Shown here: in pieces, positions 36,932-62,927 of the stretch | Numbering within the stretch: the stretch's first letter is position 1 | Layout: the number at the start of each line of letters is the position of its first letter | NCBI GenBank assembly: GCA_048939465.1 | Contig: JBHLPL010000001.1 | Coordinates: 23,562-87,561 of the forward strand | Length of the DNA stretch: 64,000 nt | DNA from: Promethearchaeota archaeon | Lineage (GTDB): Archaea; Asgardarchaeota; Odinarchaeia; Odinarchaeales; JBHLKK01 | Direction of reading: 5' to 3' | Program-made: the position numbers and the translations under genes | Notes under the pieces: generated by a model | The model's database searches: none | The model's input: the letters and a program-made list of their open reading frames with translations, nothing else | What the model was told of the DNA's origin: nothing

Positions 36932-37954
36932 TCATCGGATCATCACTATGAGTTTGATGGGACTGGCCAGATTCTTATCATTAACAAAAATGAGATCTCC
37001 TTCTTTCACTCCGGTATCTTTCAATACGATGCTATCCGGGACAATCTTGCCCTCGATAATAATCTCAGGATTCTGAAGGCCATAGGTCATTATCAGCCTG
37101 TTTTTTAATTCTTGAATGGGTTCTTCCAGGTTCACGACATATTTGACGCCTACGGTGCGGTACTTAGGACTGCAAACAACACAGCTCGGATTACGGACAA
37201 GCCTAATCTTTGTAAAAGACTGGCTCAATCCATCGTAAAATAGATAGTTGTCAAGCAGATCCTTGCGTTCTAAAATAATCTTTAGCGTTTCTTGTGCTTG
37301 GATTCCTCCGACTACTGTAGTTGTTGTGGAAATCATTGGAAATTTCTCCTTCTCTTGCTCTTTCTCTTTTCGCGCCTCTCCAGGAAGAGTACAGGCCTTC
37401 TGTAATCTTTCTTTTGGTATCAATGGTTGGCATTCCAGGCAGGGCGTTTCAAAGGGGATGATTACCTGAACGTTCCCCCACCAGCCAAATAATCCTCCAT
37501 GAATTAGAGGCTTATTCAAGTGAACACACATGGAATTCAGCCATCTGCGTGCCTCAAAAGTATCTAAGCCTTCCACGATGACCGAACTTCTCTGGTAGAC
37601 TTCTTTATCTATCGACCGCATATCCTTCATATAGGTACTTACCTTGACTTCCGGATTGAGTTTCTCAAGGAATTCCTCAGCAGCCTCCACTTTCAATCTT
37701 CCAATATCTTCTTCTCTGAAAAGTATTTGTCGGTTCAAATTCGAAAGCTCAATTGTGTCGTTGTCTATAAGAATCAACTTTCCTATTCCCATCAACGCCA
37801 GATCAAGAGCAACTACCGAGCCTAAAGCCCCCACTCCTACGACCAAAACCGTTGAATTGCGAATCAATCCTTGGTCCCATTCTTCGAGAAGTTCCTGTCT
37901 ATGATAACGACCTTCTCCTTCTTTCAAGCCTGCCCCCTCCTGAGGTGTTTCCAA
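36932..37954 (-). CDS. ubiquitin-activating E1-like enzyme (ThiF/MoeB/UBA family) with C-terminal beta-grasp-like extension
   Basis: Rossmann nucleotide motif VLVVGVGALGSVVALDLALMGIGKLILIDNDTIELSNLNRQ; catalytic region; two CxxC zinc pairs (TPCLECQ, PSCVVCSP); ~90-aa C-terminal extra domain. Confidence 0.8.
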   Translation of the reverse strand: METPQEGAGLKEGEGRYHRQELLEEWDQGLIRNSTVLVVGVGALGSVVALDLALMGIGKLILIDNDTIELSNLNRQILFREEDIGRLKVEAAEEFLEKLNPEVKVSTYMKDMRSIDKEVYQRSSVIVEGLDTFEARRWLNSMCVHLNKPLIHGGLFGWWGNVQVIIPFETPCLECQPLIPKERLQKACTLPGEARKEKEQEKEKFPMISTTTTVVGGIQAQETLKIILERKDLLDNYLFYDGLSQSFTKIRLVRNPSCVVCSPKYRTVGVKYVVNLEEPIQELKNRLIMTYGLQNPEIIIEGKIVPDSIVLKDTGVKEGDLIFVNDKNLASPIKLIVMIR

Positions 37955-38364
37955 GTAGCATACCTTTTGATATACTCTTTTACTTTCTCCTTGAATTCTC
38001 TTGGCGACTCACGCATTTCCTTTGCAGCCACTCGATTCAGAGGGTCGTGAGGGTTGGGAAAGCTCAGGACGTTTCTTATGGCCTCGATTACGCCAACTAA
38101 ATTTATGCTTGGAGACCAATCTTTCCCCAGAATGCCCAGACATATTCTTCCCTCCCTGGTGATATTTGGATGCCAAATTGGAGTCAAGAACCGAGCTTTG
38201 GGAGGTTTAAATGGATAGCTTCTGTCTACTTCTAACTCGATTTGGAAGACCCCTCCATCGTAAACACTGGTACCTAGAATGAATCCACGCCATTTTGTGA
38301 GGTCTCCACTTAGCGGTTGAAATGAAGGTTCCTCCTCCTCTATGCTCTTAGCTTCAAGTGCCAA
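37924..38364 (-). CDS. ubiquitin-conjugating enzyme E2 (UBC fold, catalytic Cys present)
   Basis: FKPPKARFLTPIWHPNITREGRICLGILGKDWSPSINL: canonical HPN motif and active-site Cys; overlaps E1 by 31 nt. Confidence 0.8.
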   Translation of the reverse strand: MALEAKSIEEEEPSFQPLSGDLTKWRGFILGTSVYDGGVFQIELEVDRSYPFKPPKARFLTPIWHPNITREGRICLGILGKDWSPSINLVGVIEAIRNVLSFPNPHDPLNRVAAKEMRESPREFKEKVKEYIKRYATWKHLRRGQA

Positions 38365-38540: not shown

Positions 38541-38783
38541 TTAAGGATCTCCTCCTTCGGTTCTAGTAATAAGATACACCTTATCTCTTTCGACGCACCC
38601 TGCTTCTTTAAGTGTCGTACTATCCAGCTGTTCCATACCTTTGAATGCAAGGACAAAGGTTGCTTCTGGTATACGTCTCTGTCTGGCAATTATTCTCTTG
38701 AGTTCACCGAATGAAATATTAGGCGCCACATCAAGTGTGGTCTTCATTCCACCAATTGCAGAGACAATCTCTACCTCCATCAT
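38541..38783 (-). CDS. ubiquitin-like beta-grasp protein with C-terminal GG-DP (pro-ubiquitin)
   Basis: alignable to ubiquitin over its length (MEVEIVSAIGGMKTTLDVAPNISFGELKRIIARQRRIPEATFVLAFKGMEQLDSTTLKEAG..LITRTEGG) and ends ..TEGGDP. Confidence 0.65.
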   Translation of the reverse strand: MMEVEIVSAIGGMKTTLDVAPNISFGELKRIIARQRRIPEATFVLAFKGMEQLDSTTLKEAGCVERDKVYLITRTEGGDP

Positions 38784-38798
38784 AAATCACCCCAATTA

Positions 38799-39038
38799 CT
38801 ATTTTACCATAAGATGTCTAGTGGAGAGTTTTCTTTTGCAGAAGGGACATTGGCCCTTCGTCTTAACCCATTCCAGCAGTTCAATCTTGTGAGCTTGGCT
38901 TCCGCAGTATGGACAGTATATTGTCTTCTCGCCGGGTCTTATTGGCAGAAGGCAAACGATGCACCTTTCTGGCTCCCAAAGCCACTCTCCTAAGACTCTA
39001 ACTTGCTTTATTACGAATCTGTCAGCTGCCTTCGACAT
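38799..39038 (-). CDS. Cys-rich RING-like zinc-finger protein (candidate E3)
   Basis: CIVCLLPIRPGEKTIYCPYCGSQAHKIELLEWVKTKGQCPFCK: CxxC-x12-CxxC-x4-H-x15-CxxC; paralogous to N-terminus of the next gene. Confidence 0.5.
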   Translation of the reverse strand: MSKAADRFVIKQVRVLGEWLWEPERCIVCLLPIRPGEKTIYCPYCGSQAHKIELLEWVKTKGQCPFCKRKLSTRHLMVK

Positions 39039-39181
39039 TTAGTATCTCCAAAGAAGATTAATTAAGAACACTATTAAATACTTTTGCGAATGCCCCCACT
39101 CGGGGCAGTTCAGACTCTTTGCTCTGAATTGATCATCTCCTACAGCCTTGGAATTGCAGATTAGTCGAAAAACCAACAGAG

Positions 39182-39913
39182 CTAACCCCCCAAAACCTCT
39201 TCAAACATATCAAGCAAAACATAGCGAGTTGAGGGATCAATGGCAACAGTTCCATAAGTTGGCACACCCAATAGTCTTCCCACAAGTTCTGGGTCCAATG
39301 AGTGGGGAAGGTCTTGTTTGTTTGCAATTGCAACAACCTTTGCATCAGGAACACGTTCTTGGACGAGGCTCATGATTCTCTTCCTGGTCCTGGCTACACT
39401 CGTTACAGACGAGTCCGTAACAACGATGATAATATCTGAGCCCCTGATCATTACGTCCCAGAATCGACCAAATCGTTCTTGTCCAGCGAAATCCCACACG
39501 ATCACTTTTACTGGCGTTTCCACCCCTTCGAGATTTTTGATATTGACCATTAGGGTAGGAGTATGGTTTATGGGAACTTCTTCATCAAAAAGCAATTTCA
39601 GCAGTGTTGTCTTGCCTGCACCGCCAAATCCCAAAAAGGAGACCTTAATGATCCTCATTAGCTGGCTTACGGAAAGTCTCATCTTACAGAAGGGACATTT
39701 ACCTTTGGTCTTAACCCATTCAAGTATTTCTCTTCTGTGAGCAATACATCCACAGTTTGGGCAGTCTATTGTCTTATCGTTAGGTCCTATTGGCAGAAGG
39801 CATACTATGCAATTCTTCGCTCCCACTTTTTCCACCCAGTCTTCCGATCTGTGGATATTGCAGAGCGTCAAATCGATTAGGAAATCCTGTCTCTCTTCAC
39901 TGGGCCACCTCAA
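39182..39913 (-). CDS. RING-like zinc finger fused to small GTPase
   Basis: N-terminal CIVCLLPIGPNDKTIDCPNCGCIAHRREILEWVKTKGKCPFCK; GTPase G1 GFGGAGKTTL, G3 WDFAGQERF, G4 ANKQDL. Confidence 0.7.
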   Translation of the reverse strand: MRWPSEERQDFLIDLTLCNIHRSEDWVEKVGAKNCIVCLLPIGPNDKTIDCPNCGCIAHRREILEWVKTKGKCPFCKMRLSVSQLMRIIKVSFLGFGGAGKTTLLKLLFDEEVPINHTPTLMVNIKNLEGVETPVKVIVWDFAGQERFGRFWDVMIRGSDIIIVVTDSSVTSVARTRKRIMSLVQERVPDAKVVAIANKQDLPHSLDPELVGRLLGVPTYGTVAIDPSTRYVLLDMFEEVLGG

Positions 39914-40074
39914 ATCTTACAAGATTTTGTAGCCTAACTACATAATTGACACTTGTAGTATAAAAGATTTGTGATGCGCTATTAATTCACAGCAAAGAAG
40001 TGTGTAAAACACGGTAACCCGCGGTTTCTTTGTTTAGAGTGAGTTGAAGGTACGATTAAATCTCCTTTGAGTAA

Positions 40075-40623
40075 TTGAGTACTACGAATGTTTTTAAGTA
40101 TTCTACTACAAATATGTATTGCGTTTGTGAGGGACTGAATTTGAGCAGTTCAAAGCGGAAGCAATTTGAGATAAAGCTTGAAGTAATCAAAACTCCTAAG
40201 GGTGAAGTTCCCACGGTCAAAAGCTTAAGGCAGGTAGTTATGGGTCTAAATGAATTGAATAGTGATATCGTTAATGTGAGGTCTCAGATTATGGGGGAAA
40301 TAAAGGATTTAAAGCGTGATGTTACCGCAGTAAAGAAGTTGCTTGCCGAAGAGGCGGTTACTTTTGATGCCATCAATGAGAAGTTCACAGACCTTAACAA
40401 CAGCTTGGAGTCTCTATTAAAGCAAAAAACAGATGATAAAACCCTGAAGGCTGTTAAGGGGGTAGGGGCTACTCTAAACTCTCTTGAGACTCAGCTTTCT
40501 GAAATGGCGAAAAATGTGAAAGATGGACTTGCGGAACAGGCCAAAAATGTTGCTAATGCCGTAGGCAAACTCTACCTTTTCCTTGAAAAGGCAGAAGAAG
40601 GAAAGAAGAAAAAGACCTCCTAG
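40075..40623 (+). CDS. coiled-coil protein of unknown function (start uncertain)
   Basis: heptad-rich, K/E-rich sequence; no motif recognised. Confidence 0.35.
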   Translation: MSTTNVFKYSTTNMYCVCEGLNLSSSKRKQFEIKLEVIKTPKGEVPTVKSLRQVVMGLNELNSDIVNVRSQIMGEIKDLKRDVTAVKKLLAEEAVTFDAINEKFTDLNNSLESLLKQKTDDKTLKAVKGVGATLNSLETQLSEMAKNVKDGLAEQAKNVANAVGKLYLFLEKAEEGKKKKTS

Positions 40624-40633
40624 GCCTCTCTTA

Positions 40634-41689
40634 TTATGTGTAAAATCTATCTCTCTGTCTTTGTCTCTCTTCTAAGAAACTCACAAAGTCACTTAGGGTC
40701 GGATCATTCTCAAGTTCGTCGTGAATCAGTTCGGCTACGCTCAGAATTGATGCTGCAACATGTGCCTTGACTTGTTGTGTTTTCTTGTCGTCGGGCTTCA
40801 GGAAACTCATTATTCTTTTTTGAAACTGCTGTAGAGTCAGCAACCTATCAACCAAAAGACCGAATGATTTCATAATGTTCTCTCTTGTGGCTGAAGCATC
40901 CTCCTTTATTCCTACTGCTTCCATGGCACGAAGACATGGATATAATATCTCAGAGCCAAACCAATTTACCAGAAGGCCTCTTTTGTCTATGGTCTTGAGA
41001 AAAACCGATAGTGGAATCCCAAGTTCTTTTATTCTATTCTTCGCCAGCTGGGCCGCTTTTTCTAGCCCTACTTCATGTGTGGCCTTAAGAACCCCTACCA
41101 TGATTGAACTGACGGCAATGGAAAGAACCCTCCTGAGATTGTTGGCTTCCAACAGCTTGTTGATTAGCTCCTTTGCTTCATCCAGATTAATGTCTGATAT
41201 GACAAATGATTTTACGATTTCCAAAAGCTGACCTCTGACCTCTAAGCTTTTCCCGTAACCTGTTCCGTCCAGGGCAAGTAGAGTATAGGCAGTCTCAAGT
41301 ATTTCTTTATCAAACCATTGCACGACCAGGTATTCATTTGTAACCCTTCTCAAATCTGTGGCGGTCTTAACGTCTTTGAGTATATGTGCTAGCCGTTCAA
41401 TAAACGTTTCAAAAATCGCAACTATGTATTCTTGGACATTTGCGTCTATTCCGTATCTCTTCAACTCTTTTTTTATAATCTTTCTAAAGCCGGACTCGGT
41501 TATCTCTCCCTTCAAGTATTTAATGAACGGAGCAAAAAGATCTTTTTTGAGATTGTCCAAAGAGGGCGGCTTGAGTTCCCTGACTAGCCTCTCAGTCATT
41601 CCCCACACTATGAAATAGTAGAAGTCTCCCATTGCCTTATAGTATTCGCTAGCGAATTCCTCACCCAATTGCTGCTCACCTCTCATCAA
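40634..41689 (-). CDS. hypothetical all-alpha protein (operonic partner of HerA-like ATPase)
   Basis: 351 aa; overlaps upstream ATPase gene by 14 nt, suggesting co-translation. Confidence 0.4.
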   Translation of the reverse strand: MMRGEQQLGEEFASEYYKAMGDFYYFIVWGMTERLVRELKPPSLDNLKKDLFAPFIKYLKGEITESGFRKIIKKELKRYGIDANVQEYIVAIFETFIERLAHILKDVKTATDLRRVTNEYLVVQWFDKEILETAYTLLALDGTGYGKSLEVRGQLLEIVKSFVISDINLDEAKELINKLLEANNLRRVLSIAVSSIMVGVLKATHEVGLEKAAQLAKNRIKELGIPLSVFLKTIDKRGLLVNWFGSEILYPCLRAMEAVGIKEDASATRENIMKSFGLLVDRLLTLQQFQKRIMSFLKPDDKKTQQVKAHVAASILSVAELIHDELENDPTLSDFVSFLEERQRQRDRFYT

Positions 41690-44282
41690 TGAGGTTTATC
41701 AGAGTATTCAAGAGTTCGCAGAACTTCCTGGCGTCTTCTTCGCTAGATGATACACCGACAAGAGATGCGATAGCGATTCTGTTGTTCTTTGCCGAAGTAA
41801 TGGCAATTCTCAAGTTTCCCTTTCCAGCCAAAATTACAGGTATCTCCTCATCTGATGGCACACTATCGATTGTCCAATTCTTGGATTTCAGTAAATCATG
41901 GATCTCCTGCAGGACTACTTGAGGTTCCTTGGATACTTTCTTGTGACAAGTCTTGGAATATACCTTGATATCACTTGGGAACAAATGTTCGTGATATCTA
42001 TACCTCATAAGTCTATTTAGAAATCTTTTTAACATGTCATCTGGAACATCAAGGGTCTTCGGTGCTGGTATTTCATAAGATCCGGCCGCTGCCACTTTTT
42101 CTGAGTCTTCGGGGTTGGCCCCTTCTTCAATGACTTCTTCGTCAGGTATTGCATATTCAATAAGCTTTGGAGATGCTTCTCTTCCGGCATGCTGACTTGT
42201 TCTGGGTCGAATTCTCAAAACAAATCCCCGGTTCGTAGTTAGTCTGGTTGACTGATCCATTATTATGGGGGTTCCAACTGGAAGGCTTCTTATGAAACTC
42301 GACTTTGAAATTTCTTTGGGAATCTCTGCCGGGGATCTTTTCATGAGTGCCTTAATATCATCTGCATAAGTCAAGTTGTGAGCAATCAGAATATCTACTT
42401 GAGAGAGGATACGGGCGTCAGTTGCTGCTGGTTGTTGGGTACACAACAACAGCCCACATCCCGGTTTTCTGCCTTCTTTAGCGTAATCAATGAGGGGCTC
42501 AGAAGCAATTGTCTCTCCATCTGAAGGGACTACTTGCTGGGCTTCGTCTATTAGAAGCCAGGTTACTGGTATCTTTTCTTCTATATCCCCATATCCGAGA
42601 TGTTTTGCCTCAATCGTTCTGGAGATCTTCTTTCGCTCTCTTAGGATCTTCCGTGCAAGAATCCCAACTACCAACTCCCGGATACTGTCCCCCAGAAAGC
42701 TTACATCTACTATAGTAATCTGATTTGGAACAACTATTTCGTTGAATGCTGTCCCTTTCTTAGAGAATATCCCCCATTGTTTGGCGGATTCCAGTCTAGA
42801 AATAACGGCTCTTCGAGTATCAAGTCTGAATCCTCCTTCCTTGGAAAGGATTTCCGTATCATCTTGAACGCACTTTATCATATCGTCAATAGTGTAATCT
42901 TCTCCTTTACCATCAATACGCATTCGGTTTCCATAGGCATCCACCACGGAATAGCCGTCTCTAACCTTATTGACTACTCTTCCGGTCAGAAAACCTCTTG
43001 GACTGGACTGCTCCAGTTTAAAGAGATAACACCAATCATCTGCAGTAAGCTCACCAGGCTTTATCGAGAATGCATCATCTCTTGTTTGTTCTGGAATCTG
43101 ATGGAATAATCCTACAGGAACTAGGACCTGAACGTTTGAATATCCCTCTGGGTCTAGTTTCCATTCCCCAAGATTCTCTAGCTCGTCCTTCTCCCAGTTC
43201 GGATATTTCATGCTCCAAAATATGCCCATCGGATCAACTATCACAACAGCTATCCCGAGACCACATCTAGCTAGTTCTTCAGCAATGACTCCGAGTGTGT
43301 ATGATTTTCCGGATCCCCGATGGCCGCATATGAAAATAACGTGGGGTTTCACTGCGTCTACCAGTACCTTACGGCCGAAATACCCTTTACCGCCAGCAGG
43401 TTTTTCGCAGATCCTCCCAATATACAAAGTCCCACGACATCCAAATTTCTCTTGAAATTGCTTGGTCCTCCCAACAATAACTGACTCTCCGAGACAGTCA
43501 TCAAGGAGTCTCAGCTCCTCCTTCATTGCGGGGCTGTATTCAACAGGAAACGATTCCTCCTTGAGGACTCTCATCTCCCCCCTTACGTGGTTGATGAGCA
43601 TCTGCAGTTCTTCTATACTTCTCGGAGGTATGGTCAGCATGCTTTCTATATATTTCCGAAGCTTATCCTTCTTTGGATAGTGCCCAGAGGAATATCCTGA
43701 GAGTTCCCACAGCATAAGCTCGATAGTCTCTTCTTTCGTCAGCCCCTCAAAAGGCACTGCGTCAACTGAAGCGGTGTCCAGAAATTTTGAATCACCCAAC
43801 GCGAGGTACAAAAGGAGGGACGCATTTATCCTATCGTTTCCGTCGAATTCCTTCAGCATACTGATAGCATTCTCTAGGTATCTCGGTTCTTTTTTCACGT
43901 TATATGCCTGAAGAAGTATGCGAAATCGATGTACGTCTATCTTGTTGTTAGATAGTGCGTAATCATATACCTTCTTCTCAGCCTCGTCAATATTTATTTC
44001 TAAGGCTCCCGAGGCTCCTTTCAATGCTTGAATGGTTTCCCAGGTATTCTTCAAAGGATCATCCTGAAATGCCCATTCCCCGGATGGTAATTGTGAGGAG
44101 AGAATGTCTTCGACAATGATTGATGCTATTTCCAGAAAGACAAGGTCTTTTGTCATCTGATAGACTCGTACGCATGCATCGACGAGGAACGGTCTATCAA
44201 CAGCTCTTGCGGATTCGGCACTGAAACTTGTTATGTAGTCTAGGATATGTGGTAATATTTCACATAGAGGTCTTCCATGCAA
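41676..44282 (-). CDS. HerA/DUF87-like P-loop ATPase with large novel N-terminal domain
   Basis: Walker A HVIFICGHRGSGKSYTLGVIAEEL, then VVIVDPMGIFW (HerA-like DphGEY equivalent); Walker B LLIDEAQQVVP; N-terminal ~290 aa with repeat-like SGEWAF..WETIQAL segment. Confidence 0.55.
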   Translation of the reverse strand: MHGRPLCEILPHILDYITSFSAESARAVDRPFLVDACVRVYQMTKDLVFLEIASIIVEDILSSQLPSGEWAFQDDPLKNTWETIQALKGASGALEINIDEAEKKVYDYALSNNKIDVHRFRILLQAYNVKKEPRYLENAISMLKEFDGNDRINASLLLYLALGDSKFLDTASVDAVPFEGLTKEETIELMLWELSGYSSGHYPKKDKLRKYIESMLTIPPRSIEELQMLINHVRGEMRVLKEESFPVEYSPAMKEELRLLDDCLGESVIVGRTKQFQEKFGCRGTLYIGRICEKPAGGKGYFGRKVLVDAVKPHVIFICGHRGSGKSYTLGVIAEELARCGLGIAVVIVDPMGIFWSMKYPNWEKDELENLGEWKLDPEGYSNVQVLVPVGLFHQIPEQTRDDAFSIKPGELTADDWCYLFKLEQSSPRGFLTGRVVNKVRDGYSVVDAYGNRMRIDGKGEDYTIDDMIKCVQDDTEILSKEGGFRLDTRRAVISRLESAKQWGIFSKKGTAFNEIVVPNQITIVDVSFLGDSIRELVVGILARKILRERKKISRTIEAKHLGYGDIEEKIPVTWLLIDEAQQVVPSDGETIASEPLIDYAKEGRKPGCGLLLCTQQPAATDARILSQVDILIAHNLTYADDIKALMKRSPAEIPKEISKSSFIRSLPVGTPIIMDQSTRLTTNRGFVLRIRPRTSQHAGREASPKLIEYAIPDEEVIEEGANPEDSEKVAAAGSYEIPAPKTLDVPDDMLKRFLNRLMRYRYHEHLFPSDIKVYSKTCHKKVSKEPQVVLQEIHDLLKSKNWTIDSVPSDEEIPVILAGKGNLRIAITSAKNNRIAIASLVGVSSSEEDARKFCELLNTLINLIDER

Positions 44283-44324: not shown

Positions 44325-44939
44325 TCATGACCTGCTTTCCTTTAGTTTCTTAATTTCTTTTTCCAGCTCTGAGACCTTCTTCTCCGGTGCTGGAAGAGCA
44401 ATACCTGTTTCAACAGTTATCTCCTGATCGATTTCGGTCAACGTTTTTTCAATTTCCTTATCACTAATCTCTTGCGAAACCGTGATTTCGAGTCCTGATT
44501 CAGCGATCTCTTTCGACACCTCAAATTGCTGTAGCTGACCTTCAACTTCTTTAATCAATTTGGCTATCTTTGGTACCTTCACAGCGTTCTTAAGTCCCCC
44601 AAGGACGTTACGGAGACTACCTAATATTTTGGACAAATCAGTAACAGATTCGCTTTGTCTGAGTTTTACAATTAGTCCCTCTATGGTCAATCTGTAGTTG
44701 TCAATGCCAACTGCCCACTTCTGAAATTGCAGGTAATGCTTTGCGTACGTCTTTGCAGCCTCATTATTGCCCTTGATACGTTGAGTTCGAGCTTTAGTAC
44801 GGCTCTTGTCGCCTTCTCTTTCCAGTTGCATCCTTTGTCTATCGAGTTTCCGTGTGAGCAAATCCAACTGAAAAATGGCCTTCTCAAGCCTTTTTCTCTT
44901 AGACCCCCCTAACCAGTCAAACAAACGGCCTAACGACAA
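44325..44939 (-). CDS. ESCRT-III (Snf7/CHMP family; Vps2/24/46-like)
   Basis: 204 aa; basic N-terminal helices (KRKRLEKAIFQLDLLTRKLDRQRMQLERE...KGNNEAAKTYAKHYLQ) and acidic C-terminal helices with E/I-rich tail; Snf7-like charge asymmetry. Confidence 0.6.
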   Translation of the reverse strand: MSLGRLFDWLGGSKRKRLEKAIFQLDLLTRKLDRQRMQLEREGDKSRTKARTQRIKGNNEAAKTYAKHYLQFQKWAVGIDNYRLTIEGLIVKLRQSESVTDLSKILGSLRNVLGGLKNAVKVPKIAKLIKEVEGQLQQFEVSKEIAESGLEITVSQEISDKEIEKTLTEIDQEITVETGIALPAPEKKVSELEKEIKKLKESRS

Positions 44940-45100: not shown

Positions 45101-46264
45101 TTGGGATTGATGTCTGATAAGCTGTTCAAATACGCCACCCAGATGGCGAAGGAAGCTGTGAAACTTGACAAGCAAGGCAAACAGAAGCTGGCTGTACAGA
45201 AATATATTCATGCGGCCGATATCTTGATGAGGTTTCTGAAATTAACCGAGAATCCCGCACTGAGAAAAGTATGTTATGAAAAGGCGGAGCAGTATGTGCA
45301 AAGAGCTAAAGAACTACAAGGTGTAACACCAGGTCTGCCGGCAGTATCAGAAAAAGCAGCGGGGAAAGCGCTGACCAAGGAAGATCAAGCCCTCCAAGAA
45401 GCAATCTCGGATACCATAATCACTGAGAAACCAAGTGTTGAATGGGAAGACGTAGCAAATCTAGAGACGGCAAAACAAGCCTTGAGAGAGGCTGTTATCT
45501 TACCGATGCTCAGACCAGATATTTTTACTGGTGCAAGGGAACCTTGGCGTGGATTATTGTTGATCGGACCACCCGGATGTGGAAAAACACTGCTCGCAAA
45601 AGCTGTGGCGAACGAATGCAACGCAACATTCTTCAGCGCTGACGCAGCCTCTTTGGTTTCAAAGTGGCTGGGAGAATCGGAAAAACTTGTAAGCACATTA
45701 TTTACCGTTGCACGAAGTAGCTCCCCTTCCGTTGTGTTCATCGACGAAGTGGATGCTTTGGCAACAGTTAGATCGGGTGATGAGGTTGGAGGTGAGCGGA
45801 GAATGAAGACGCAGCTATTAATAGAAATGGATGGGGTTCGAAAACGAAAGGGAGAGCAAGTAGTAGTTCTTGGCGCCACGAACAGGCCATGGGATCTTGA
45901 CCCGGGTTTTCGTAGAAGGTTCGAAAAAAGAATTTATGTGCCCCTTCCTGATAAGGAAGGCCGTCGCGAGATATTTAAGATTCACGTCAGAGGAATTGAA
46001 ATAGCTTCAGATGTTGATTTTGATGAACTAGCGACTCTTACTGAGGGATACTCCGGCTCAGATATTGCGCTGATATGTAGGGATGCTGCCATGATGCCAA
46101 TACGTGAACTGGATACCGCAGGCACGTTGACTAGGAAAGATATCAAAGTTCGATCGGTAGATCGTGAGGATTTTCTGAAGTCCATGAAAAAGGTTAGGCC
46201 AACTGTTTCACCAGACGAACTGGAGAAATACGAGGAATGGACCAAAGAATTCGCATCAGAATGA
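45101..46264 (+). CDS. vps4: Vps4-like AAA ATPase (N-terminal MIT domain)
   Basis: MIT-like three-helix N-terminus (LDKQGKQKLAVQKYIHAADILMRFLKL...AEQYVQRAKELQ); AAA Walker A GPPGCGKTLLAKAVA; Walker B VVFIDEVD; second region of homology. Confidence 0.85.
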   Translation: MGLMSDKLFKYATQMAKEAVKLDKQGKQKLAVQKYIHAADILMRFLKLTENPALRKVCYEKAEQYVQRAKELQGVTPGLPAVSEKAAGKALTKEDQALQEAISDTIITEKPSVEWEDVANLETAKQALREAVILPMLRPDIFTGAREPWRGLLLIGPPGCGKTLLAKAVANECNATFFSADAASLVSKWLGESEKLVSTLFTVARSSSPSVVFIDEVDALATVRSGDEVGGERRMKTQLLIEMDGVRKRKGEQVVVLGATNRPWDLDPGFRRRFEKRIYVPLPDKEGRREIFKIHVRGIEIASDVDFDELATLTEGYSGSDIALICRDAAMMPIRELDTAGTLTRKDIKVRSVDREDFLKSMKKVRPTVSPDELEKYEEWTKEFASE

Positions 46265-46278
46265 ACTGGTGATATATA

Positions 46279-47025
46279 TTGTCGGTAAGGGAAAAGCCAC
46301 GTAAAAAAGCTGGGAAGTCTCAAAAGGAAGAAACTGACAAGAAGGAGCGAATCAAAGAAGAGCTTGAGGAACTCAAGGAAGAAGTTGAAACAATGGTGGA
46401 GGCAGAAGAAGCTGAGACAATAGAAGAGGTTGAGAAAATCCAAGAGCCTAGCGCTAGGCAACTTCCGAAGGCGGTTGCTGAGGAAATCTCCTCTGAATTG
46501 GAGAAGATCTGTAACTTATATGAATGGGTTGCAAATCCTGAACAAGTCAGATGGATGTATTGGATGCCCTCCAATAAAGAGCATATTGATTCATGGAGAG
46601 ACGAATGGGCTGATTTCTTGTTTCAATGGGCCCGAGCAAAAATCCTTCATATAGTAACACTGGTCTTGCTTATGGGTGAACACCCATTTGATAAGTTATC
46701 TCCAAAGGTGGATTCGCTGAGAGTTATTATGAAAACCCTAGCTGAGAAGGATCTTGCTGAATTCTTGGATAATAAAGAAACCAGATTGCGAATATACTGG
46801 AGGACTCTTAATGAGTGGGCAGAAATAATCTATAACTGGGCACTCAATACCGGAAGAATGGATATAAGTGTTTTTGATGTTATTAATGACAGAGGGGAAA
46901 AGTGGGGCTTTCACACGCTGCCAGCGAAAGAAATTAGACTCATCTTCAGGATTATGGTAGAGCGTGGGTTGGCCCGTTGGATGGACGAGAAGAGAGGCCA
47001 TATTGAGATAAGAGTAGACTTTTGA
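46279..47025 (+). CDS. Vps25-like ESCRT-II subunit (tandem winged helix) with acidic N-terminal extension
   Basis: IYWRTLNEWAEIIYNWALNTGRMDISVFDVIND ~ human VPS25 IMWRRPEEWGKLIYQWVSRSGQNNSVFTLYEL; C-terminal HTLPAKEIRLIFRIMVERGLARWMDEKRGHIEI ~ HGLDEATLLRALQALQQEHKAEII..DGRGVKF. Confidence 0.6.
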   Translation: MSVREKPRKKAGKSQKEETDKKERIKEELEELKEEVETMVEAEEAETIEEVEKIQEPSARQLPKAVAEEISSELEKICNLYEWVANPEQVRWMYWMPSNKEHIDSWRDEWADFLFQWARAKILHIVTLVLLMGEHPFDKLSPKVDSLRVIMKTLAEKDLAEFLDNKETRLRIYWRTLNEWAEIIYNWALNTGRMDISVFDVINDRGEKWGFHTLPAKEIRLIFRIMVERGLARWMDEKRGHIEIRVDF

Positions 47026-51175: not shown

Positions 51176-51922
51176 TTATGAGTTTTTACTTGCCTTGCCT
51201 CCTAGCCCGGGAAAGTAGTACTTTTCTCCTCTTGAATAGCTAGGATCCATTCTGGTAACCTTGGCTTTTTTTAATGCCTCTAATGCTCTTTTGACTCTGG
51301 TCTCGTTCCACCCGGTTTTCACCATGATTTCCTCAGGAGTCGTCCAGCCTTTCTCGCTTGCAATGTTCAATATCTCATTCTGATCATTTCCCAGCTCCAC
51401 AGAAATGAATTGAACAACCTTCACGTCTGACTTCAACTTCATGATTCCTGGTATCATATCTTCTTCTTCCATTTTCCTTATGGCCTTCATAACATCCTCT
51501 ACTGATATCTTTCCCTTGATCATTCCTGTGTTGACCAATAAAACAGCTTCTGGAATTGTCATAATTCCACCTGTTTCTTGCCTTCTCATCAGGGCTCTCT
51601 GATAAAGAAGCAAACCCAGTTTCTCATGATCAACTTTAGTTCTGAAAAATCCCTTCCTCACCACATCCTCTTCTCTCACAATCTGGGTAATAATAGCGCT
51701 TTTGGGAATACCGAACTTCTTTCTAATCTTTTCAACTTCCGAGCGGAACTCGGGATTTATGTCGAGCAGGATTCCATACTTCTTGACTATCTCTACCAGC
51801 TTTTCCCTCGTACGCTTGGCCATTTCAAGCTCGCTTGCCATATTCTGAAGTCTCAACTCAACGCCTTTTTCTTCCAAGGCTCGTTTTGCTCTCATCTCCT
51901 TCTCAATTTCGTAAAGACCCAA
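51176..51922 (-). CDS. Vps22-like ESCRT-II subunit (EAP30 domain)
   Basis: tandem winged-helix EAP30-like pattern: GGIMTIPEAVLLVNTGM...ISVEDVMKAIRKMEE...ILNIASEKGWTTPEEIMVKTGWNETRVKRALEALKKAKVTRMDPSYSRGEKYYFP. Confidence 0.55.
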   Translation of the reverse strand: MGLYEIEKEMRAKRALEEKGVELRLQNMASELEMAKRTREKLVEIVKKYGILLDINPEFRSEVEKIRKKFGIPKSAIITQIVREEDVVRKGFFRTKVDHEKLGLLLYQRALMRRQETGGIMTIPEAVLLVNTGMIKGKISVEDVMKAIRKMEEEDMIPGIMKLKSDVKVVQFISVELGNDQNEILNIASEKGWTTPEEIMVKTGWNETRVKRALEALKKAKVTRMDPSYSRGEKYYFPGLGGKASKNS

Positions 51923-52729
51923 TCAAACGCCCCCCTCGGACACTTCCTTCAGCTTAGCTTCAAAGTCTTTAAGCCATCTATCCGCTTGGAACCCAAGCCT
52001 TTCGGCCTCCTCTTCACTGACAGTCTCGCTTGGTTTTCGAGACTTAAGCCTGTCGCGCCATTCTTCAATCTCCTTGATAACCCAGTACTTCGCATTGAAT
52101 CCAGGAAATCTCTTCATAATACTCAGAAGCTCGTCTAGTCGTGGAACAAGCATATCAACTCTTGCTACGTCCTTCAGTCTTGTAAGATCCATCACAGTAA
52201 TCAGATTCGTTGTGATGTCGAGCGTTTTAGAAGCGACTGTTGCAGGAGAAGCTGTCAAAATCTCTAGAAGAGCGCCTGTCTCACCCTCTGCAAGTTTTAG
52301 TTTATTGATCGCCAAAGGAAACTCCCTTACTATTCCTTCATCTTCCAAGAACTTGGCAACGTCGATATTCAGTTCTTCCAATCTGCCTTTAGCCTTGAAT
52401 GCGCCTGTCATTAGCGCTCGGACTTGACGCTTGTACATTGCTGGCTCTATTCTGGCTTCCTTGAAACTCTCGATTATGGATTCCAGTGTTGCGATGCATG
52501 CATAGAGTTCTGCCTGTTTGTCAAGAACGTATTTTCTCTGGGAAGGACTGAGCCTCTGAAGTGCTTCAGACTCCCCCCCTCGAACCGACTCGCTTAGTGT
52601 CGATTTGTATTCCGACGCAGTTGAGCTGTTTTCAAGGGGCTCTTTTGGGGCTTCTTCTTTTTTCTTTTCCTTTCTTTTCTTTTCTGCCTCGGATGTTTCA
52701 CGCTTTCTGGTTACTTCCATCCCGTTCAC
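51923..52729 (-). CDS. Vps28-like ESCRT-I subunit
   Basis: AELYACIATLESIIESFKEARIEPAMYKRQVRALMTGAFKA ~ human VPS28 [42 protein letters not shown]; C-terminal ITVMDLTRL ~ ITVMDKLRL four-helix-bundle region. Confidence 0.6.
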   Translation of the reverse strand: MNGMEVTRKRETSEAEKKRKEKKKEEAPKEPLENSSTASEYKSTLSESVRGGESEALQRLSPSQRKYVLDKQAELYACIATLESIIESFKEARIEPAMYKRQVRALMTGAFKAKGRLEELNIDVAKFLEDEGIVREFPLAINKLKLAEGETGALLEILTASPATVASKTLDITTNLITVMDLTRLKDVARVDMLVPRLDELLSIMKRFPGFNAKYWVIKEIEEWRDRLKSRKPSETVSEEEAERLGFQADRWLKDFEAKLKEVSEGGV

Positions 52730-52750: not shown

Positions 52751-53548
52751 TTACTTCTTCAGTTCCTCAAGCTTCTTGGTAACCAAATACAAGTCTTTCT
52801 TATAACGTTTATAGAGCTTACCATACTCTACGTCGCTGATTTCGCCCGATTCGTACTTCATCTCGAGGTTTTGCAGGAGGTCCTCAGTTGCGATCTTTTC
52901 ACCCTCAAGGTCCAATATCCTCTCTTCTTTTGGGTCGCCAAGTTTGGGGGCCTCATGTTGGCCTGAAAGCGAAATGCTTCGAGCGTCCATCGCTCCGCGT
53001 ATTCTGGCCAGTTCCTCGTCCTTTTTCTGCATAACATCTCTCAATCTTAACGTTTCTCTCTCAAGGTTCAGAACCTTTGATTGGAGTTGTCTAACGCCTT
53101 CCGAAACCGCGGCTGTAGGTTCCAGAGCAGTTGTGGCTGTTGCGGGGGCAGAAACATATATGGGTCTGGGCGGCTTACGTGCAAAGAGACCTTTCAGTGT
53201 ATTGACAACCTGATGGATGTGATATTCTGGACGCCATTCGGAGAGTATTTTCAGGCTAACTTCTCCGGATTGCCTATTGATCTGGGGGTGATCTGTCGGC
53301 GTAATCATTTTCACACTAGGCGCTGACCTTGGAAAGTCATCAGGTAATGCTATCTCAACTTCGAATCTCCTCTTCGCGTGTTGTCCTCTACCCGGTATGG
53401 AACCTCTCCAAAGCCTCAGGTTTCCTCTGACTGGAGTAAATTCCTGCGCTCGTCTGTACATGAGTTGGGCTTCTTTAGCAACAATCAATTCAGCATCTTC
53501 AGACAAGTGATTGCCTCCCTTTTGGGTTTTTTCAAGAATAATTATCAA
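52751..53548 (-). CDS. UEV-domain protein (Tsg101/Vps23-like ESCRT-I subunit; catalytically inactive E2 fold plus coiled-coil stalk)
   Basis: UBC-fold region FPRSAPSVKMITPTDHPQINRQSGEVSLKILSEWRP with HP(N) motif but the E2 catalytic Cys replaced by Ser (EVSLKIL vs RICLGIL in the true E2 at 37924..38364); C-terminal coiled coil. Confidence 0.55.
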   Translation of the reverse strand: MIIILEKTQKGGNHLSEDAELIVAKEAQLMYRRAQEFTPVRGNLRLWRGSIPGRGQHAKRRFEVEIALPDDFPRSAPSVKMITPTDHPQINRQSGEVSLKILSEWRPEYHIHQVVNTLKGLFARKPPRPIYVSAPATATTALEPTAAVSEGVRQLQSKVLNLERETLRLRDVMQKKDEELARIRGAMDARSISLSGQHEAPKLGDPKEERILDLEGEKIATEDLLQNLEMKYESGEISDVEYGKLYKRYKKDLYLVTKKLEELKK

Positions 53549-57902: not shown

Positions 57903-58760
57903 ATGATTCATTCGGTTTATGTAATCCGAAGGACAGGAGAATGCCTATTCTCCAGAGTATATGATAAGAACGGAATCGACGAAGCCCTAATATCCGGCTT
58001 CTTAAGCGCTCTACAATCTTTCATAAATGAAATCAGTGGAGATTATGTAAGGACTCTGAAAACTGGAAATGTGAAATTTGTCTATAATTTACTGGATGAT
58101 CTGATATTCGTATTCTGCGTCGATCTAGAAGAAGATGAGGAAAAACTGAGAAAGAAGATAAATCTCACTCAGAGTGTCTTCGTAAGGAGATTTGGCAGCA
58201 TAATAGAAGGCTGGAATGGTCAAACCAGCATCTTCGAATCCTTCAATGTAACAGTAGATGACATTGTTACAGATCTCGTAAAGGTATCCGTAATTGGATT
58301 TGGGGGTGTCGGTAAGACGACTCTCCTCAAGCTTATTCTAAGGGAAGAAGTTCCCGTACAACACATTCCAACAATAGCGGTTGATATCAAAGATCTTAAC
58401 GGTGTAAAATCCCCGGCAAAGGTGGTCATGTGGGATTTTGCTGGACAACAGCGTTTTGAATCCCTTTGGGATGTGATGATTAAAGGCTCAGACGTTATTC
58501 TAATTGTTACGGATTCTTCCATGTTAAATATAGTAAAGACCAAGAAAAAAATCATCTCCCTCATTAAAGAGCATAATCCCGGCGCGAGAGTTATTGCTAT
58601 TGCAAACAAACAAGACCTTCCGAATTCGATAAAGCCAAGAGCAATTAGTGACCTTCTAGGCGTACCGGTTTATGGAATTGTCGGCATAGACCCTTCAAAT
58701 CGAGGGCAATTGCTTGAGATAATAGGCGATACTGTTAATAGCTGGCTAGAATATTCATAA
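57903..58760 (+). CDS. roadblock/longin-like domain fused to small GTPase
   Basis: N-terminal ~100 aa MIHSVYVIRRTGECLFSRVY...ISGFLSALQSFINEISGDY (roadblock/LC7-longin-like); GTPase G1 GFGGVGKTTL, G3 WDFAGQQRF, G4 ANKQDL; ~60% identical to GTPase core of 39182..39913. Confidence 0.7.
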   Translation: MIHSVYVIRRTGECLFSRVYDKNGIDEALISGFLSALQSFINEISGDYVRTLKTGNVKFVYNLLDDLIFVFCVDLEEDEEKLRKKINLTQSVFVRRFGSIIEGWNGQTSIFESFNVTVDDIVTDLVKVSVIGFGGVGKTTLLKLILREEVPVQHIPTIAVDIKDLNGVKSPAKVVMWDFAGQQRFESLWDVMIKGSDVILIVTDSSMLNIVKTKKKIISLIKEHNPGARVIAIANKQDLPNSIKPRAISDLLGVPVYGIVGIDPSNRGQLLEIIGDTVNSWLEYS

Positions 58761-62279: not shown

Positions 62280-62927
62280 TTACTCTTTTTCTTTTTCCTC
62301 TTCTGGTATGTCTTCTTTAAGCCCTTTCTTAATATCTTCAAGTTCCTTCCGTATTTTGTCCTTCTTCTTTTCAGCGACAGCCTTCTCTTTTTCGGTGGGA
62401 ATCTCAGGTAACTCTTCTTCTATGGCCACTTCCTCTTGAAGTTTTGCTAACTCCCTCTCTACGTCAATGTCTTCGCCTTCATCCAAAGCTGTGGCACTTA
62501 ACATCTCACTGGTTTTCTCTATCTCATCAACCAGTTGTTCAGTTTTTAGCATAACTTCAGTAGCTTTCTCACTTGACATAAGTCTTCTTGCTTCTTCAAG
62601 TTGTTCAAGACCAACTTCAAGGGCACGTCCCATGTCGGCAGTATCTCTAGCAGTCTCGATCATATCAATAACATCTTCTAGGCTGCCTACCTGTCTATGA
62701 TAACGATTCATCCATGTGGTATATCTTTTCCATTTTCGAAGATGTGTCCTTGCCCCATCTGTGTTTCCTTGCCTTACAAGCTCTCTTGCTCTCTGCTTGC
62801 TTTCTCCTGCCTTTCTTTCAAATCCACGAACTCTGAGTGTCATCTTGTTGATTGTTGCACGCATTTCTGTAACTGCTTCGTCTCTGCTTTCCTTTTTCTT
62901 GGGGAATAGCTTCCTCAGAAAACCCAA
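62280..62927 (-). CDS. ESCRT-III (Snf7/CHMP family; Vps20/32/60-like)
   Basis: 215 aa; N-terminal MGFLRKLFPKKK basic start, basic helices (ARELVRQGNTDGARTHLRKWKRY), acidic C-terminal half ending in EEL..EKEKE; Snf7 organisation. Confidence 0.6.
   Translation of the reverse strand: MGFLRKLFPKKKESRDEAVTEMRATINKMTLRVRGFERKAGESKQRARELVRQGNTDGARTHLRKWKRYTTWMNRYHRQVGSLEDVIDMIETARDTADMGRALEVGLEQLEEARRLMSSEKATEVMLKTEQLVDEIEKTSEMLSATALDEGEDIDVERELAKLQEEVAIEEELPEIPTEKEKAVAEKKKDKIRKELEDIKKGLKEDIPEEEKEKE

Follow-up and report, generated by a model that had tools for sequence, protein, structure and literature searches.

A gene joining a RING-like domain to an Arf-like GTPase beside the ubiquitin cluster of an Asgard archaeon

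The minus strand of the 64,000-nucleotide stretch of archaeal DNA analyzed here (the window) holds two open reading frames (ORFs) next to genes of a ubiquitin system, of which one encodes a small Cys/His-rich protein and the other appears to place the same module ahead of a small GTPase. This locus raises the questions of whether the longer frame is a true fusion gene, from which genes its two parts derive, and what a protein of this architecture may do. The coordinates of the features discussed are compiled in Table 1.

Table 1. Features of the ubiquitin-RING locus and of the related GTPase gene, in window coordinates
Feature	Coordinates	Strand	Description	Basis
E1-like activating enzyme (ThiF)	36932..37954	-		Pfam ThiF, 228 bits
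E2 ubiquitin-conjugating enzyme	37924..38364	-		Pfam UQ_con, 130 bits
Ubiquitin	38541..38783	-	ends in ...GGDP, two residues past the di-glycine	Pfam ubiquitin, 29 bits
Solo small RING finger E3 (srfp ortholog)	38799..39038	-	79 aa	Pfam zf-RING_2, AF2 and Foldseek, synteny
N-terminal beta-hairpin region of solo RING	38967..39038	-	residues 1-24, motif RF[IV]I...G.W.W	alignment with Asgard solo RINGs
TATA-like element AAAGTATTTAATA	39072..39084	-	about 35-45 nt ahead of the ATG of the solo RING	conserved in window, L001, and L004
RING-GTPase fusion gene	39182..39826	-	214 aa, GTG most likely start, stop codon 39182..39184	
Arf-like G domain of fusion	39185..39652	-	residues 59-214	Pfam Arf, Arl2 alignment, Foldseek
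RING domain of fusion	39686..39811	-	residues 6-47, C-x2-C-x12-CPxC-x4-H-x2-E-x10-CPxC	Pfam, profile matches
Promoter-like element ATCACAAATCTTTTATA	39959..39975	-	about 135 nt upstream of the fusion start	identical in window, L001, and L004
Longin-GTPase paralog	57903..58760	+	285 aa, closest relative of the fusion's G domain	

Profile searches with zf-RING_2 and Arf detected an N-terminal RING followed by an Arf-like G domain in a single chain, and both zf-RING_2 and Arf/Ras were present in all of the homologs P0001 to P0005 (213 to 214 aa). Additional members of the P0002 cluster came from Logan and ENA. A preliminary description of this DNA had given the extent of the fused ORF as 39182..39913, which requires correction. 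Fusion orthologs have an ATG 4 or 5 residues ahead of the first Cys and in-frame stops further upstream; the 243-aa version starting at TTG 39913 is therefore over-extended and was ruled out, and the start is most likely GTG 39826, resulting in a protein of the same length as the 99%-identical P0001. An uninterrupted ORF in an identical gene order was found in six independent assemblies (window, L001 to L004, L013, and L014). The 214-aa gene is a confirmed fusion of a RING and an Arf-like GTPase. There is next to no probability that the fusion results from faulty assembly or annotation or is a pseudogene in decay, with two separate genes in reality. The mechanically defined ORF of the window was indeed over-extended at its 5' end, and the window sequence has a Met directly ahead of the G domain, but the frame is unbroken in one Logan assembly as well as in NCBI MAGs that originate from different samples, this Met is not conserved in P0002 to P0005, and omega is below 1 for the RING and for the G domain. 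The lack of conservation of the internal Met also ruled out a separate translation of the G domain.

The RING identity of the Cys/His-rich module was examined in both copies. The top Pfam match was zf-RING_2, with 29.5 bits for the solo RING and 25.5 bits for the fused RING, the latter being slightly under the gathering threshold of 27.3 bits. The solved RING-H2 domains of EL5 and RNF24 were matched in profile searches with E values reaching 1e-5. In the alignment with these two domains, the cysteines and the His fall on known zinc ligands, and the CPxC cysteine replaces ligand 4, as is also the case in Caldiarchaeum subterraneum srfp (PMC5654768). The pattern C-x2-C-x12-C-x2-C-x4-H...C-x2-C, which covers ligands 1 to 5, 7, and 8 in cross-brace spacing, was invariant in all nine solo and fused sequences. 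Zinc ligand 6 is an invariant Glu in both copies; at this position, 136 related RING cores contain His (123), Glu (6), Asp (5), or Cys (2). As a carboxylate, this Glu could bind zinc; with neither His nor Cys as ligand 6, the first zinc site of the fused RING is a putative one. Residues I7, W37, and P45 of the fused RING are invariant in all orthologs, and the same Ile, Trp, and Pro are invariant in the solo copy. The Ile after ligand 1, the helix Trp, and the Pro after ligand 7 correspond to hydrophobic E2 contacts (PMC5654768; established RING-E2 structures).

The preliminary description had named structure prediction as the way to distinguish a RING from a simple zinc ribbon, and the predicted fold, like the sequence, was RING-like. 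For the solo RING, the AF2 model (pLDDT 82.5) had TRIM37, RNF24, EL5, Rad18, RNF165, TRAF6, and Ring1b as top Foldseek matches, with 47 to 60 aligned columns and rmsd values of mostly 1.1 to 1.6 Å (2.3 and 5.4 Å for the NMR models of EL5 and RNF24, respectively), and the best 50 matches consisted almost entirely of E3 domains of the RING/U-box type and of the RING-like zinc domains found in GATOR2/IFT-A subunits. The model of the fused protein contained the same secondary-structure elements, with low confidence in the first zinc knuckle (pLDDT 41 to 66). These models support a predicted RING with a beta-beta-alpha cross-brace fold. We consider it very improbable that the module is a generic zinc ribbon, involved for example in nucleic acid binding and without an E3 role, as might be suggested by weak, sub-threshold Pfam matches to DZR, Zn_ribbon_3, and zf-Di19 and by a homolog titled "Zn-ribbon RNA-binding protein" in one JGI record. 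This reading is contradicted by the zf-RING_2 top match, by the RING-H2 E3s as best sequence matches among solved structures, by the fold matches and their best rmsd values, and by the conserved Trp and the location ahead of Ub-E2-E1, both of which are shared with the archaeal srfp shown to be active in experiments.

That both ORFs share this module, as had been described, is evident from a gapless BLASTP alignment of the solo and fused RING proteins (36 of 54 residues identical, 67%; E 5e-25). The similarity of the underlying DNA had been judged by eye to be about 75%, and we measured 73.5% (119/162, ungapped) between the cores at 38808..38969 and 39656..39817, close to the positions first proposed (38820..38990 and 39660..39840). 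On both strands of the window, the runner-up 162-nt match of the solo core had 66 identities (41%), at a background mean of 40.8 and a standard deviation of 5.6. Among 155 RING cores, which belong to a family recovered by exhaustive HMMER searches (word-indexed searches, whether queried with the solo RING or with an alignment of nine RING sequences, returned only one protein), the nearest neighbors of the fused RINGs were the solo RINGs of the same clade (64 to 72%), and all others reached at most 59 to 61%. The His-to-Glu replacement at ligand 6 is a derived change common to both copies. These comparisons support the view that the cluster's solo RING and the fused RING are paralogs that arose through local duplication.

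Several data relate to the age of this event. Identity of the two cores at third codon positions was 29/54 (54%) and dS was about 1, indicating that the duplication is old and not recent. Solo and fused RINGs formed separate ortholog groups in all genomes compared, which, together with the dS, ruled out a recent tandem duplication; a recent gene conversion between the copies was ruled out since the identity of the paralogs within a genome (68%) does not exceed that between genomes. As judged from sequence divergence, the duplication is ancient and occurred inside a small clade. The solo RING contains an N-terminal hairpin (strands at residues 10 to 15 and 18 to 23 in the AF2 prediction), and the alignment with Asgard solo RINGs showed that this region is missing from the fused copy. 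In a Helarchaeia E3, the equivalent region aids UEV-Vps23 binding (bioRxiv 10.1101/2023.07.25.550441).

The second half of the protein was analyzed by alignment to Arl2, and the integrity of the G motifs, on which the preliminary description had made the GTPase assignment depend, was found to be preserved: G1 (GFGGAGKTT), the PT of switch I, G3 (WDFAGQ, including the catalytic Gln), G4 (NKQD), and G5 (TVA) are all present, and the motif residues are invariant in six orthologs. Of the Pfam GTPase families matched, Arf (PF00025) scored best with 73.2 bits (cut-off, 22.3 bits), followed by Roc (60.4 bits) and Ras (48.6 bits). All PDB sequence matches listed for the G domain were Arf/Arl, and the top Foldseek matches were Arf1, Arl1, Arl2, and Asgard ArfR. 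Neither the sequence nor the AF2 model of the fusion contained an Arf-type N-terminal amphipathic helix or a myristoylated Gly2; the N-terminus is the RING, and a short helix (residues 53 to 57) is the sole element between the RING and strand beta-1. The G domain shares 88 of 149 residues (59%; BLASTP E 2e-67) with that of the longin-GTPase encoded 18 kb away. Homologs of the latter (P0006 to P0012) contain a PF19036 longin domain and Arf, and its gene neighborhood is the same in L005 to L007. A Pfam search of the fusion did not detect the PF19036 longin. The alignments thus identify the fusion gene as a chimera of two local duplications, one of the RING and one of the G domain. Through this paralogy and an Arf-like domain with intact G motifs, the initial proposal of a local duplication that placed one copy N-terminal to a Ras-superfamily GTPase was upheld.

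The genes for ubiquitin, E2, and E1 are located directly downstream of the solo RING, which occupies the same place upstream of Ub-E2-E1 in other Asgard lineages. Since E1 orthologs have 331 aa, the true E1 start is probably a few codons inside the ORF in Table 1. The locus had been termed a ubiquitin operon; the genes are indeed part of a ubiquitin/E2/E1 cluster, but a single operon is not established, since the fused gene and the solo RING-ubiquitin pair are each probably driven by a promoter of their own. ATCACAAATCTTTTATA is the putative promoter element of the fusion gene, and AAAGTATTTAATA, which is followed by a GGAG ribosome-binding site ahead of the solo RING, would be that of the solo RING. 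An Rfam search of the whole window gave no match.

The fusion was detected in 2 of 185,579 GTDB species representatives, and a scan of JGI metagenome contigs revealed no additional members of the fusion family. MAG records of the fusion-bearing lineage are labeled either Hodarchaeota or unclassified Promethearchaeota. At the same position, other Asgard lineages contain the solo RING alone without the fusion, which is therefore a derived insertion. The papers examined on Asgard ESCRT/ubiquitin systems and Asgard GTPases (PMC10936438, PMC9192718, PMC10933270, bioRxiv 2024.02.28.582541, PMC12962969) do not mention the fusion; for the Hodarchaeia cluster, only a "Rab-like GTPase" and Yip1 were noted (bioRxiv 10.1101/2023.07.25.550441). 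The RING-GTPase fusion in Asgard archaea is real, rare, and, in these papers, undescribed.

Parts of this architecture are found in known systems. (i) In archaeal srfp E3s of C. subterraneum and Helarchaeia, as at this locus, a solo gene of about 80 aa with a RING-H2-like domain and a conserved N-terminal region lies directly upstream of ubiquitin-E2-E1, and the additional "C3B" cysteine (CPxC knuckle) of C. subterraneum srfp is also present in the solo RING (PMC5654768). Archaeal srfp/E1/E2 cascades are active in vitro (PMC5654768; bioRxiv 10.1101/2023.07.25.550441). In contrast to these E3s, the clade of the window has Glu instead of His at zinc ligand 6, and in its fused copy a G domain is added and the N-terminal hairpin is missing. 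(ii) Asgard longin-GTPase fusions of the Arf/Rag-like class (Tran et al. 2024, PMC10933270) also have an N-terminal accessory domain attached straight onto strand beta-1, but in the window fusion a RING takes the place of the longin. (iii) The Asgard ArfR proteins GerdArfR1 and HodArfR1 (PDB 8oum and 8ouk) are similar to the G domain in both sequence and fold (E about 1e-12 to 1e-10), but bind membranes through an N-terminal amphipathic helix, in the place of which the fusion has its RING.

(iv) The architecture had been considered unknown among characterized proteins, yet the metazoan TRIM23/ARD1 is a precedent: its single polypeptide starts with a RING E3 and ends with a G domain of the ARF family, and the activities of the two are functionally coupled (PMC8358228, PMC5794181). 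TRIM23 differs in that its two domains are separated by two B-boxes and a coiled coil, for which the archaeal fusion, with a connector of about 10 residues, showed no Pfam matches. Moreover, TRIM23 originated within Metazoa from an Arf1-like gene (PMC8358228), whereas the archaeal gene combines a local srfp copy with a copy of the longin-GTPase; the two are thus convergent and not homologous as fusions. In TRIM23, auto-ubiquitination of the G domain is reported to drive or permit GTP/GDP cycling (PMC5794181). The archaeal RING may likewise act mainly on its own G domain, so that ubiquitin would regulate the GTPase. This is the reported mechanism of the characterized RING-ARF protein compared here, and it would be compatible with the tight joining of RING and G domain; considering that the fusion lacks the B-boxes and coiled coil that serve higher-order assembly in TRIM23 and that TRIM23 is of independent origin, we regard it as improbable.

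The model that we slightly favor, at somewhat better than even chances, is that of a maintained chimera, in which the RING recruits E2~Ub, the G domain provides targeting, and the nucleotide state may gate the RING. The fusion would have arisen in one small Asgard lineage, where a copy of the RING E3 shed its N-terminal substrate-binding hairpin and its last helix became joined straight to a G domain that stemmed from a duplicated longin-GTPase, the RING thereby replacing the longin. The RING would recruit the neighboring ubiquitin-charged E2 via the conserved Ile/Trp/Pro surface. The Arf-like G domain would assume targeting, its GTP/GDP state setting the place and partners of ubiquitin transfer, the latter probably being membrane or ESCRT associated. 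Neither the sequence nor the AF2 model shows an apparent flexible linker at the junction, which puts the RING at the place of the nucleotide-sensitive N-terminal helix of Arf; for this reason, the RING may itself be gated by the nucleotide state as well. For the fusion, we infer E3 activity, dependence on GTP, and targets; GTP-regulated or GTPase-targeted ubiquitin ligation is plausible.

The rates of evolution bear on whether the fused RING is itself a ligase. Omega amounted to 0.35 to 0.43 for the fused RING, 0.09 to 0.12 for the G domain, and 0.04 to 0.07 for the solo RING, values that are rough since dS is near saturation. These data point to purifying selection on both halves of the fusion. 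The dN was 0.22 to 0.25 for the fused and 0.05 to 0.06 for the solo RING; the fused copy thus evolves about 4 to 5 times faster at non-synonymous sites, which could mean a relaxed function. In line with the difference in omega, the fused RING may be a weak or inactive partner that heterodimerizes with the solo RING E3, as in BARD1-BRCA1 and Bmi1-Ring1b, and the GTPase would then regulate or localize the solo E3. The fusion always co-occurs with and adjoins the solo RING, and its RING lacks the N-terminal hairpin and scores slightly below the Pfam cut-off. We nevertheless consider such a partnership unlikely, since the zinc-ligand positions, including Glu at ligand 6, and the Ile/Trp/Pro positions for E2 contact are invariant in the fused copies. 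Beyond the maintained chimera proposed above, it is conceivable, although rather doubtful, that a Hodarchaeota-like Asgard lineage independently evolved a minimal TRIM23-like, GTP-switched ligase that ubiquitinates ESCRT or membrane targets in one nucleotide state only.

For the pre-eukaryotic rise of ubiquitin-dependent sorting, no better model is available than the ubiquitin-ESCRT clusters of Asgard archaea. At this locus, a single small protein, encoded next to its own E1, E2, and ubiquitin, unites two eukaryote-like hallmarks, namely a RING E3 and an Arf-like switch. Due to its very narrow distribution in a handful of related MAGs, the fusion says little about the ancestor of eukaryotes, but it documents domain shuffling between neighboring paralogs in an archaeon and shows that the RING-Arf combination known from animal TRIM23 originated independently a second time. 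The four proteins form a compact, expressible system in which GTPase control of ubiquitination is directly addressable. If the GTP-switched ligase were real, a direct coupling of small GTPases and ubiquitin sorting could arise in archaea that possess a eukaryote-like Ub-ESCRT toolkit.

Five consecutive minus-strand genes at 36.9 to 39.9 kb of the window encode, in this order, a RING-GTPase fusion, a solo RING protein, ubiquitin, E2, and E1; they are followed by a Yip1 gene and then by a gene of the histone deacetylase family. The gene of the two-domain protein, a RING joined to an Arf-like switch, thus neighbors a full set of E1, E2, and ubiquitin genes as well as ESCRT genes. Judging from the Pfam labels on syntenic loci, an Asgard-type ubiquitin-ESCRT supercluster occupies the wider window.

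Features of the window around the RING-GTPase gene
Feature	Position	Strand	Remarks
E1	36932..37954	-	Pfam ThiF, 228 bits
E2	37924..38364	-	Pfam UQ_con, 130 bits
Ubiquitin	38541..38783	-	
Solo RING protein	38799..39038	-	79 aa
TATA-like element AAAGTATTTAATA	39072..39084	-	conserved, upstream of solo RING
RING-plus-GTPase gene (ORF)	39182..39913	-	
Small palindrome	39929..39941		
TATA-like element ATCACAAATCTTTTATA	39959..39975	-	conserved, upstream of fusion
Coiled-coil protein	40075..40623	+	ORF of 182 aa
351-aa protein	40634..41689	-	no Pfam match
HerA/DUF87-type ATPase	41676..44282	-	868 aa
Snf7	44325..44939		supercluster member
Vps4	45101..46264		supercluster member
ESCRT-II-like gene	46279..47025		supercluster member
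EAP30 gene	51176..51922		supercluster member
Vps28	51923..52729		supercluster member
UEV-Vps23	52751..53548		supercluster member
Longin-GTPase	57903..58760	+	285 aa
601-aa protein	59839..61644	+	N-terminal CxxC motifs
Second Snf7	62280..62927		supercluster member

Several neighbors deserve mention. The window ubiquitin ends in RTEGGDP, i.e., the di-glycine and two further residues, and is probably a pro-ubiquitin requiring a protease; protease-dependent pro-ubiquitin has been shown in other archaeal systems. The ATPase, which has a long N-terminal extension, and the 351-aa protein are encoded between ESCRT-III and the RING-GTPase, and both are kept in four of the fusion loci (L001-L003 and L013). 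The coiled-coil protein, whose gene is oriented divergently to the ubiquitin cluster, has orthologs of about 160 aa, and in L010 and L012, which belong to other Asgard lineages, a similar-sized gene takes its place beside the solo RING; it may be asCOG005522, an uncharacterised protein mentioned in bioRxiv 10.1101/2023.07.25.550441. The 601-aa protein, with several zinc-ribbon motifs, appears to have an unusual, long ESCRT-II-related architecture, since its ortholog in the longin-GTPase locus L005 is labelled EAP30 (Vps22/36-like).

The preliminary description had delimited the fusion gene as the entire ORF; the gene is present, with its 5' end placed too far upstream. The orthologs in loci L001 and L004 start with an ATG located 4 to 5 residues before the first Cys and have several in-frame stops upstream, which marks the 243-aa ORF from TTG 39913 as a mechanical over-extension. 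The window has a GTG at the equivalent position (39826), preceded by GGGTGG, and P0001, a 99% identical database protein, is called from the equivalent start, with a length of 214 aa. The G domain is not a separate gene, because the window's Met ahead of it has no conserved counterpart in the homologs P0002-P0005. A GGAG site and a conserved TATA-like element precede the solo RING, and a distinct element is found ~135 nt upstream of the fusion start; on this evidence, the cluster is probably transcribed as more than one unit. The fusion leader of ~135 nt (39827..39975, minus strand; alike in L001 and L004) is strongly conserved in its first ~50 nt, which include the palindrome GTAGTT(A/G)(G/A)GCTAC. 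It had no match in Rfam and could be a regulatory 5' UTR.

Pairwise alignments confirmed that the Cys/His module is duplicated and that the DNA of the copies is similar: 36 of 54 residues are identical without gaps (E 5e-25), as are 119 of the 162 nucleotides (73.5%) of the cores 38808..38969 and 39656..39817. The runner-up match to the solo core in the whole window reached 66/162, over a background mean of 40.8 (sd 5.6). Third codon positions agree in just 54%, and dS between the copies is ~1, indicating that the duplication is old.

By sequence and predicted fold, the module is RING-like, as proposed, rather than a plain zinc ribbon. (i) zf-RING_2 is the top Pfam match of both copies (solo, 29.5 bits; fused, 25.5 bits; cut-off, 27.3). 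(ii) A profile of nine modules matches the solved RING-H2 domains of EL5 (E 1.3e-5), RNF24, Arkadia, and RNF165. (iii) AF2 models the solo protein (pLDDT 82.5) with a beta-beta-alpha core, and the 50 best PDB matches of this model in Foldseek are, with few exceptions, RING/U-box E3 domains or GATOR2/IFT-A RING-like zinc domains, including TRIM37, RNF24, EL5, Rad18, RNF165, TRAF6, and Ring1b (best rmsd, 1.1-1.6 Å over 47-55 residues). Alignment to solved RING-H2 domains assigns ligands 1 and 2 to C-x2-C, ligand 3 to the second Cys of CPxC, ligand 5 to His, and ligands 7 and 8 to the terminal CPxC, the CPxC knuckle's first Cys taking the place of the canonical His at ligand 4. The window's clade has Glu as ligand 6; since 136 related cores have His (123), Glu (6), Asp (5), or Cys (2) there, the family is effectively C4H2C2 with recurrent carboxylate substitutions. 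The classical E2-contact residues do not vary: an Ile follows ligand 1, a Trp lies in the helix, and a Pro follows ligand 7. The experimentally active srfp of C. subterraneum shows the same ligand displacement with an extra "C3B" cysteine (PMC5654768). The srfp-type RING (C4H2C2, CPxC knuckle) is a large family with 1146 representatives at E<=1e-3. In relatives P0122-P0270 the RING is often C-terminal in longer proteins, some with 2-4 tandem RING or zinc-ribbon repeats; P0131 (755 aa) has it fused to leucine-rich repeats, and P0269 from Baldrarchaeia combines an N-terminal RING with an unknown 170-aa tail.

The assignment of the second half to the Ras superfamily was equally borne out. The fusion matches Pfam Arf with 73.2 bits, above Roc and Ras, and in alignment with Arl2 the P-loop, the Thr of switch I, the WDFAGQ motif carrying the catalytic Gln, and NKQD can all be recognized. 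Six orthologs keep these residues unchanged, together with TVA of G5. The AF2 model of the fusion (pLDDT 78.6; G domain mostly >85 outside switch I-interswitch, where blocks 81-120 have 54-59) matches Arf1, Arl1, Arl2, and Asgard ArfR structures in Foldseek. The Arf N-terminal amphipathic helix is missing, and the last RING helix leads directly into strand beta-1.

Solo RINGs are 87-90% identical between genomes, and the fused RINGs form a group of their own (DCP[NK]CG[GC][IL]AH versus [YF]CPYCGSQAH in solo RINGs). An exhaustive profile search supplied 155 RING cores, of which those closest to the fused RINGs are the solo RINGs of their clade (64-72%, versus <=59-61% for others). In both copies Glu has replaced His at zinc ligand 6, a shared derived state; in other Asgard solo RINGs this ligand is His. 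The fusion G domain is 59% identical (88/149, E 2e-67) to that of the longin-GTPase, its closest paralog, with subsequent relatives at <=49% among the matches listed. The RING/G-domain junction corresponds to the extreme end of the solo reading frame (HLMVK-stop in the solo versus QLMRIIKVSF in the fusion). Two local paralogs have thus contributed to the fusion gene, a chimera with a RING in place of the longin domain. The longin-GTPase neighbors, namely, a VTT-domain membrane protein, UbiA, a metallophosphoesterase, the 601-aa EAP30-domain protein, and the second Snf7, are the same in L005-L007. The fused copy lacks a 24-residue N-terminal beta-hairpin (RF[IV]I..G.W.W) common to all solo RINGs; the equivalent region of a Helarchaeia ortholog helps to bind UEV-Vps23 (bioRxiv 10.1101/2023.07.25.550441).

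The chimera is real, conserved, and confined to few related Asgard genomes. A GTPase-wide search retrieved 535 relatives, and among the 120 matches listed zf-RING_2 was combined with Arf/Ras only in five 90%-identity clusters (P0001-P0005; 213-214 aa, 68-99% identical). Scanning GTDB with a single genome for each of 185,579 species revealed the fusion in two species representatives only, and none was found in a JGI metagenome scan. The sources of the fusion loci are NCBI MAGs, with the label Hodarchaeota or unclassified Promethearchaeota, and one Logan assembly. The order of the five genes is constant in all recovered loci (L001-L004, L013, and L014), with an opposite-strand Yip1 next wherever the contig is long enough. 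In a further Promethearchaeota lineage and in one from Helarchaeota, the order is unknown minus-strand gene, solo RING, ubiquitin, E2, and E1, the opposite-strand Yip1 following E1 only in the Promethearchaeota loci. Since the RING-GTPase is absent there, the fusion is a derived insertion beside an ancestral E3.

The two fusion halves are each under constraint. Comparison of the window with L001 and L004 gave omega values of 0.04-0.07 for the solo RING, 0.35-0.43 for the fused RING, 0.09-0.12 for the G domain, 0.04-0.05 for ubiquitin, and 0.08-0.09 for E2, which are rough figures because dS is near saturation. The non-synonymous rate of the fused RING is ~4-5 times that of its solo paralog, and this fast-evolving domain might alternatively pair with the solo E3 as a non-catalytic heterodimer subunit. 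Against the same loci, dS is ~0.6 for the fused RING part (39656..39826) versus 1.6-2.2 for the G-domain part (39185..39652); the low value, from 56 codons, could be due to noise, to constraint on the nucleotide sequence, or to an earlier gene conversion. Paralog identity within genomes gave no sign of recent gene conversion.

As for an active ligase, archaeal srfp proteins engage E2~Ub in vitro (PMC5654768; bioRxiv 10.1101/2023.07.25.550441), and by analogy the fusion RING would engage the neighboring E2~Ub. The G domain would stand in for the N-terminal substrate-binding hairpin and now provide nucleotide-dependent targeting. It possibly also gates the RING, which sits where Arf proteins have a nucleotide-sensitive N-terminal element. 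Alternatively, the RING may ubiquitinate its own G domain and drive GTPase cycling, as in TRIM23 (PMC5794181). The preliminary description knew of no characterised protein with this architecture, but it does exist: metazoan TRIM23/ARD1 has an N-terminal RING E3 and a C-terminal ARF, and its function needs both activities (PMC8358228, PMC5794181). The archaeal fusion lacks the B-boxes and coiled coil of TRIM23, and its halves arose locally and independently of that protein. It stands outside the TRIM23 family, as a far smaller analogue produced by convergence. In eukaryotes, Arf-family proteins have repeatedly been recruited into ubiquitin circuits (Vargova et al., PMC8358228). We found no description of this RING-Arf fusion in the papers searched on Asgard GTPases and Asgard Ub-ESCRT systems, one preprint noting a "Rab-like GTPase" and Yip1 in the Hodarchaeia cluster with the RING unmentioned, and the chimera is apparently undescribed. 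Its narrow distribution limits its significance; the fusion, a putative ligase, is attractive as a compact, testable system.
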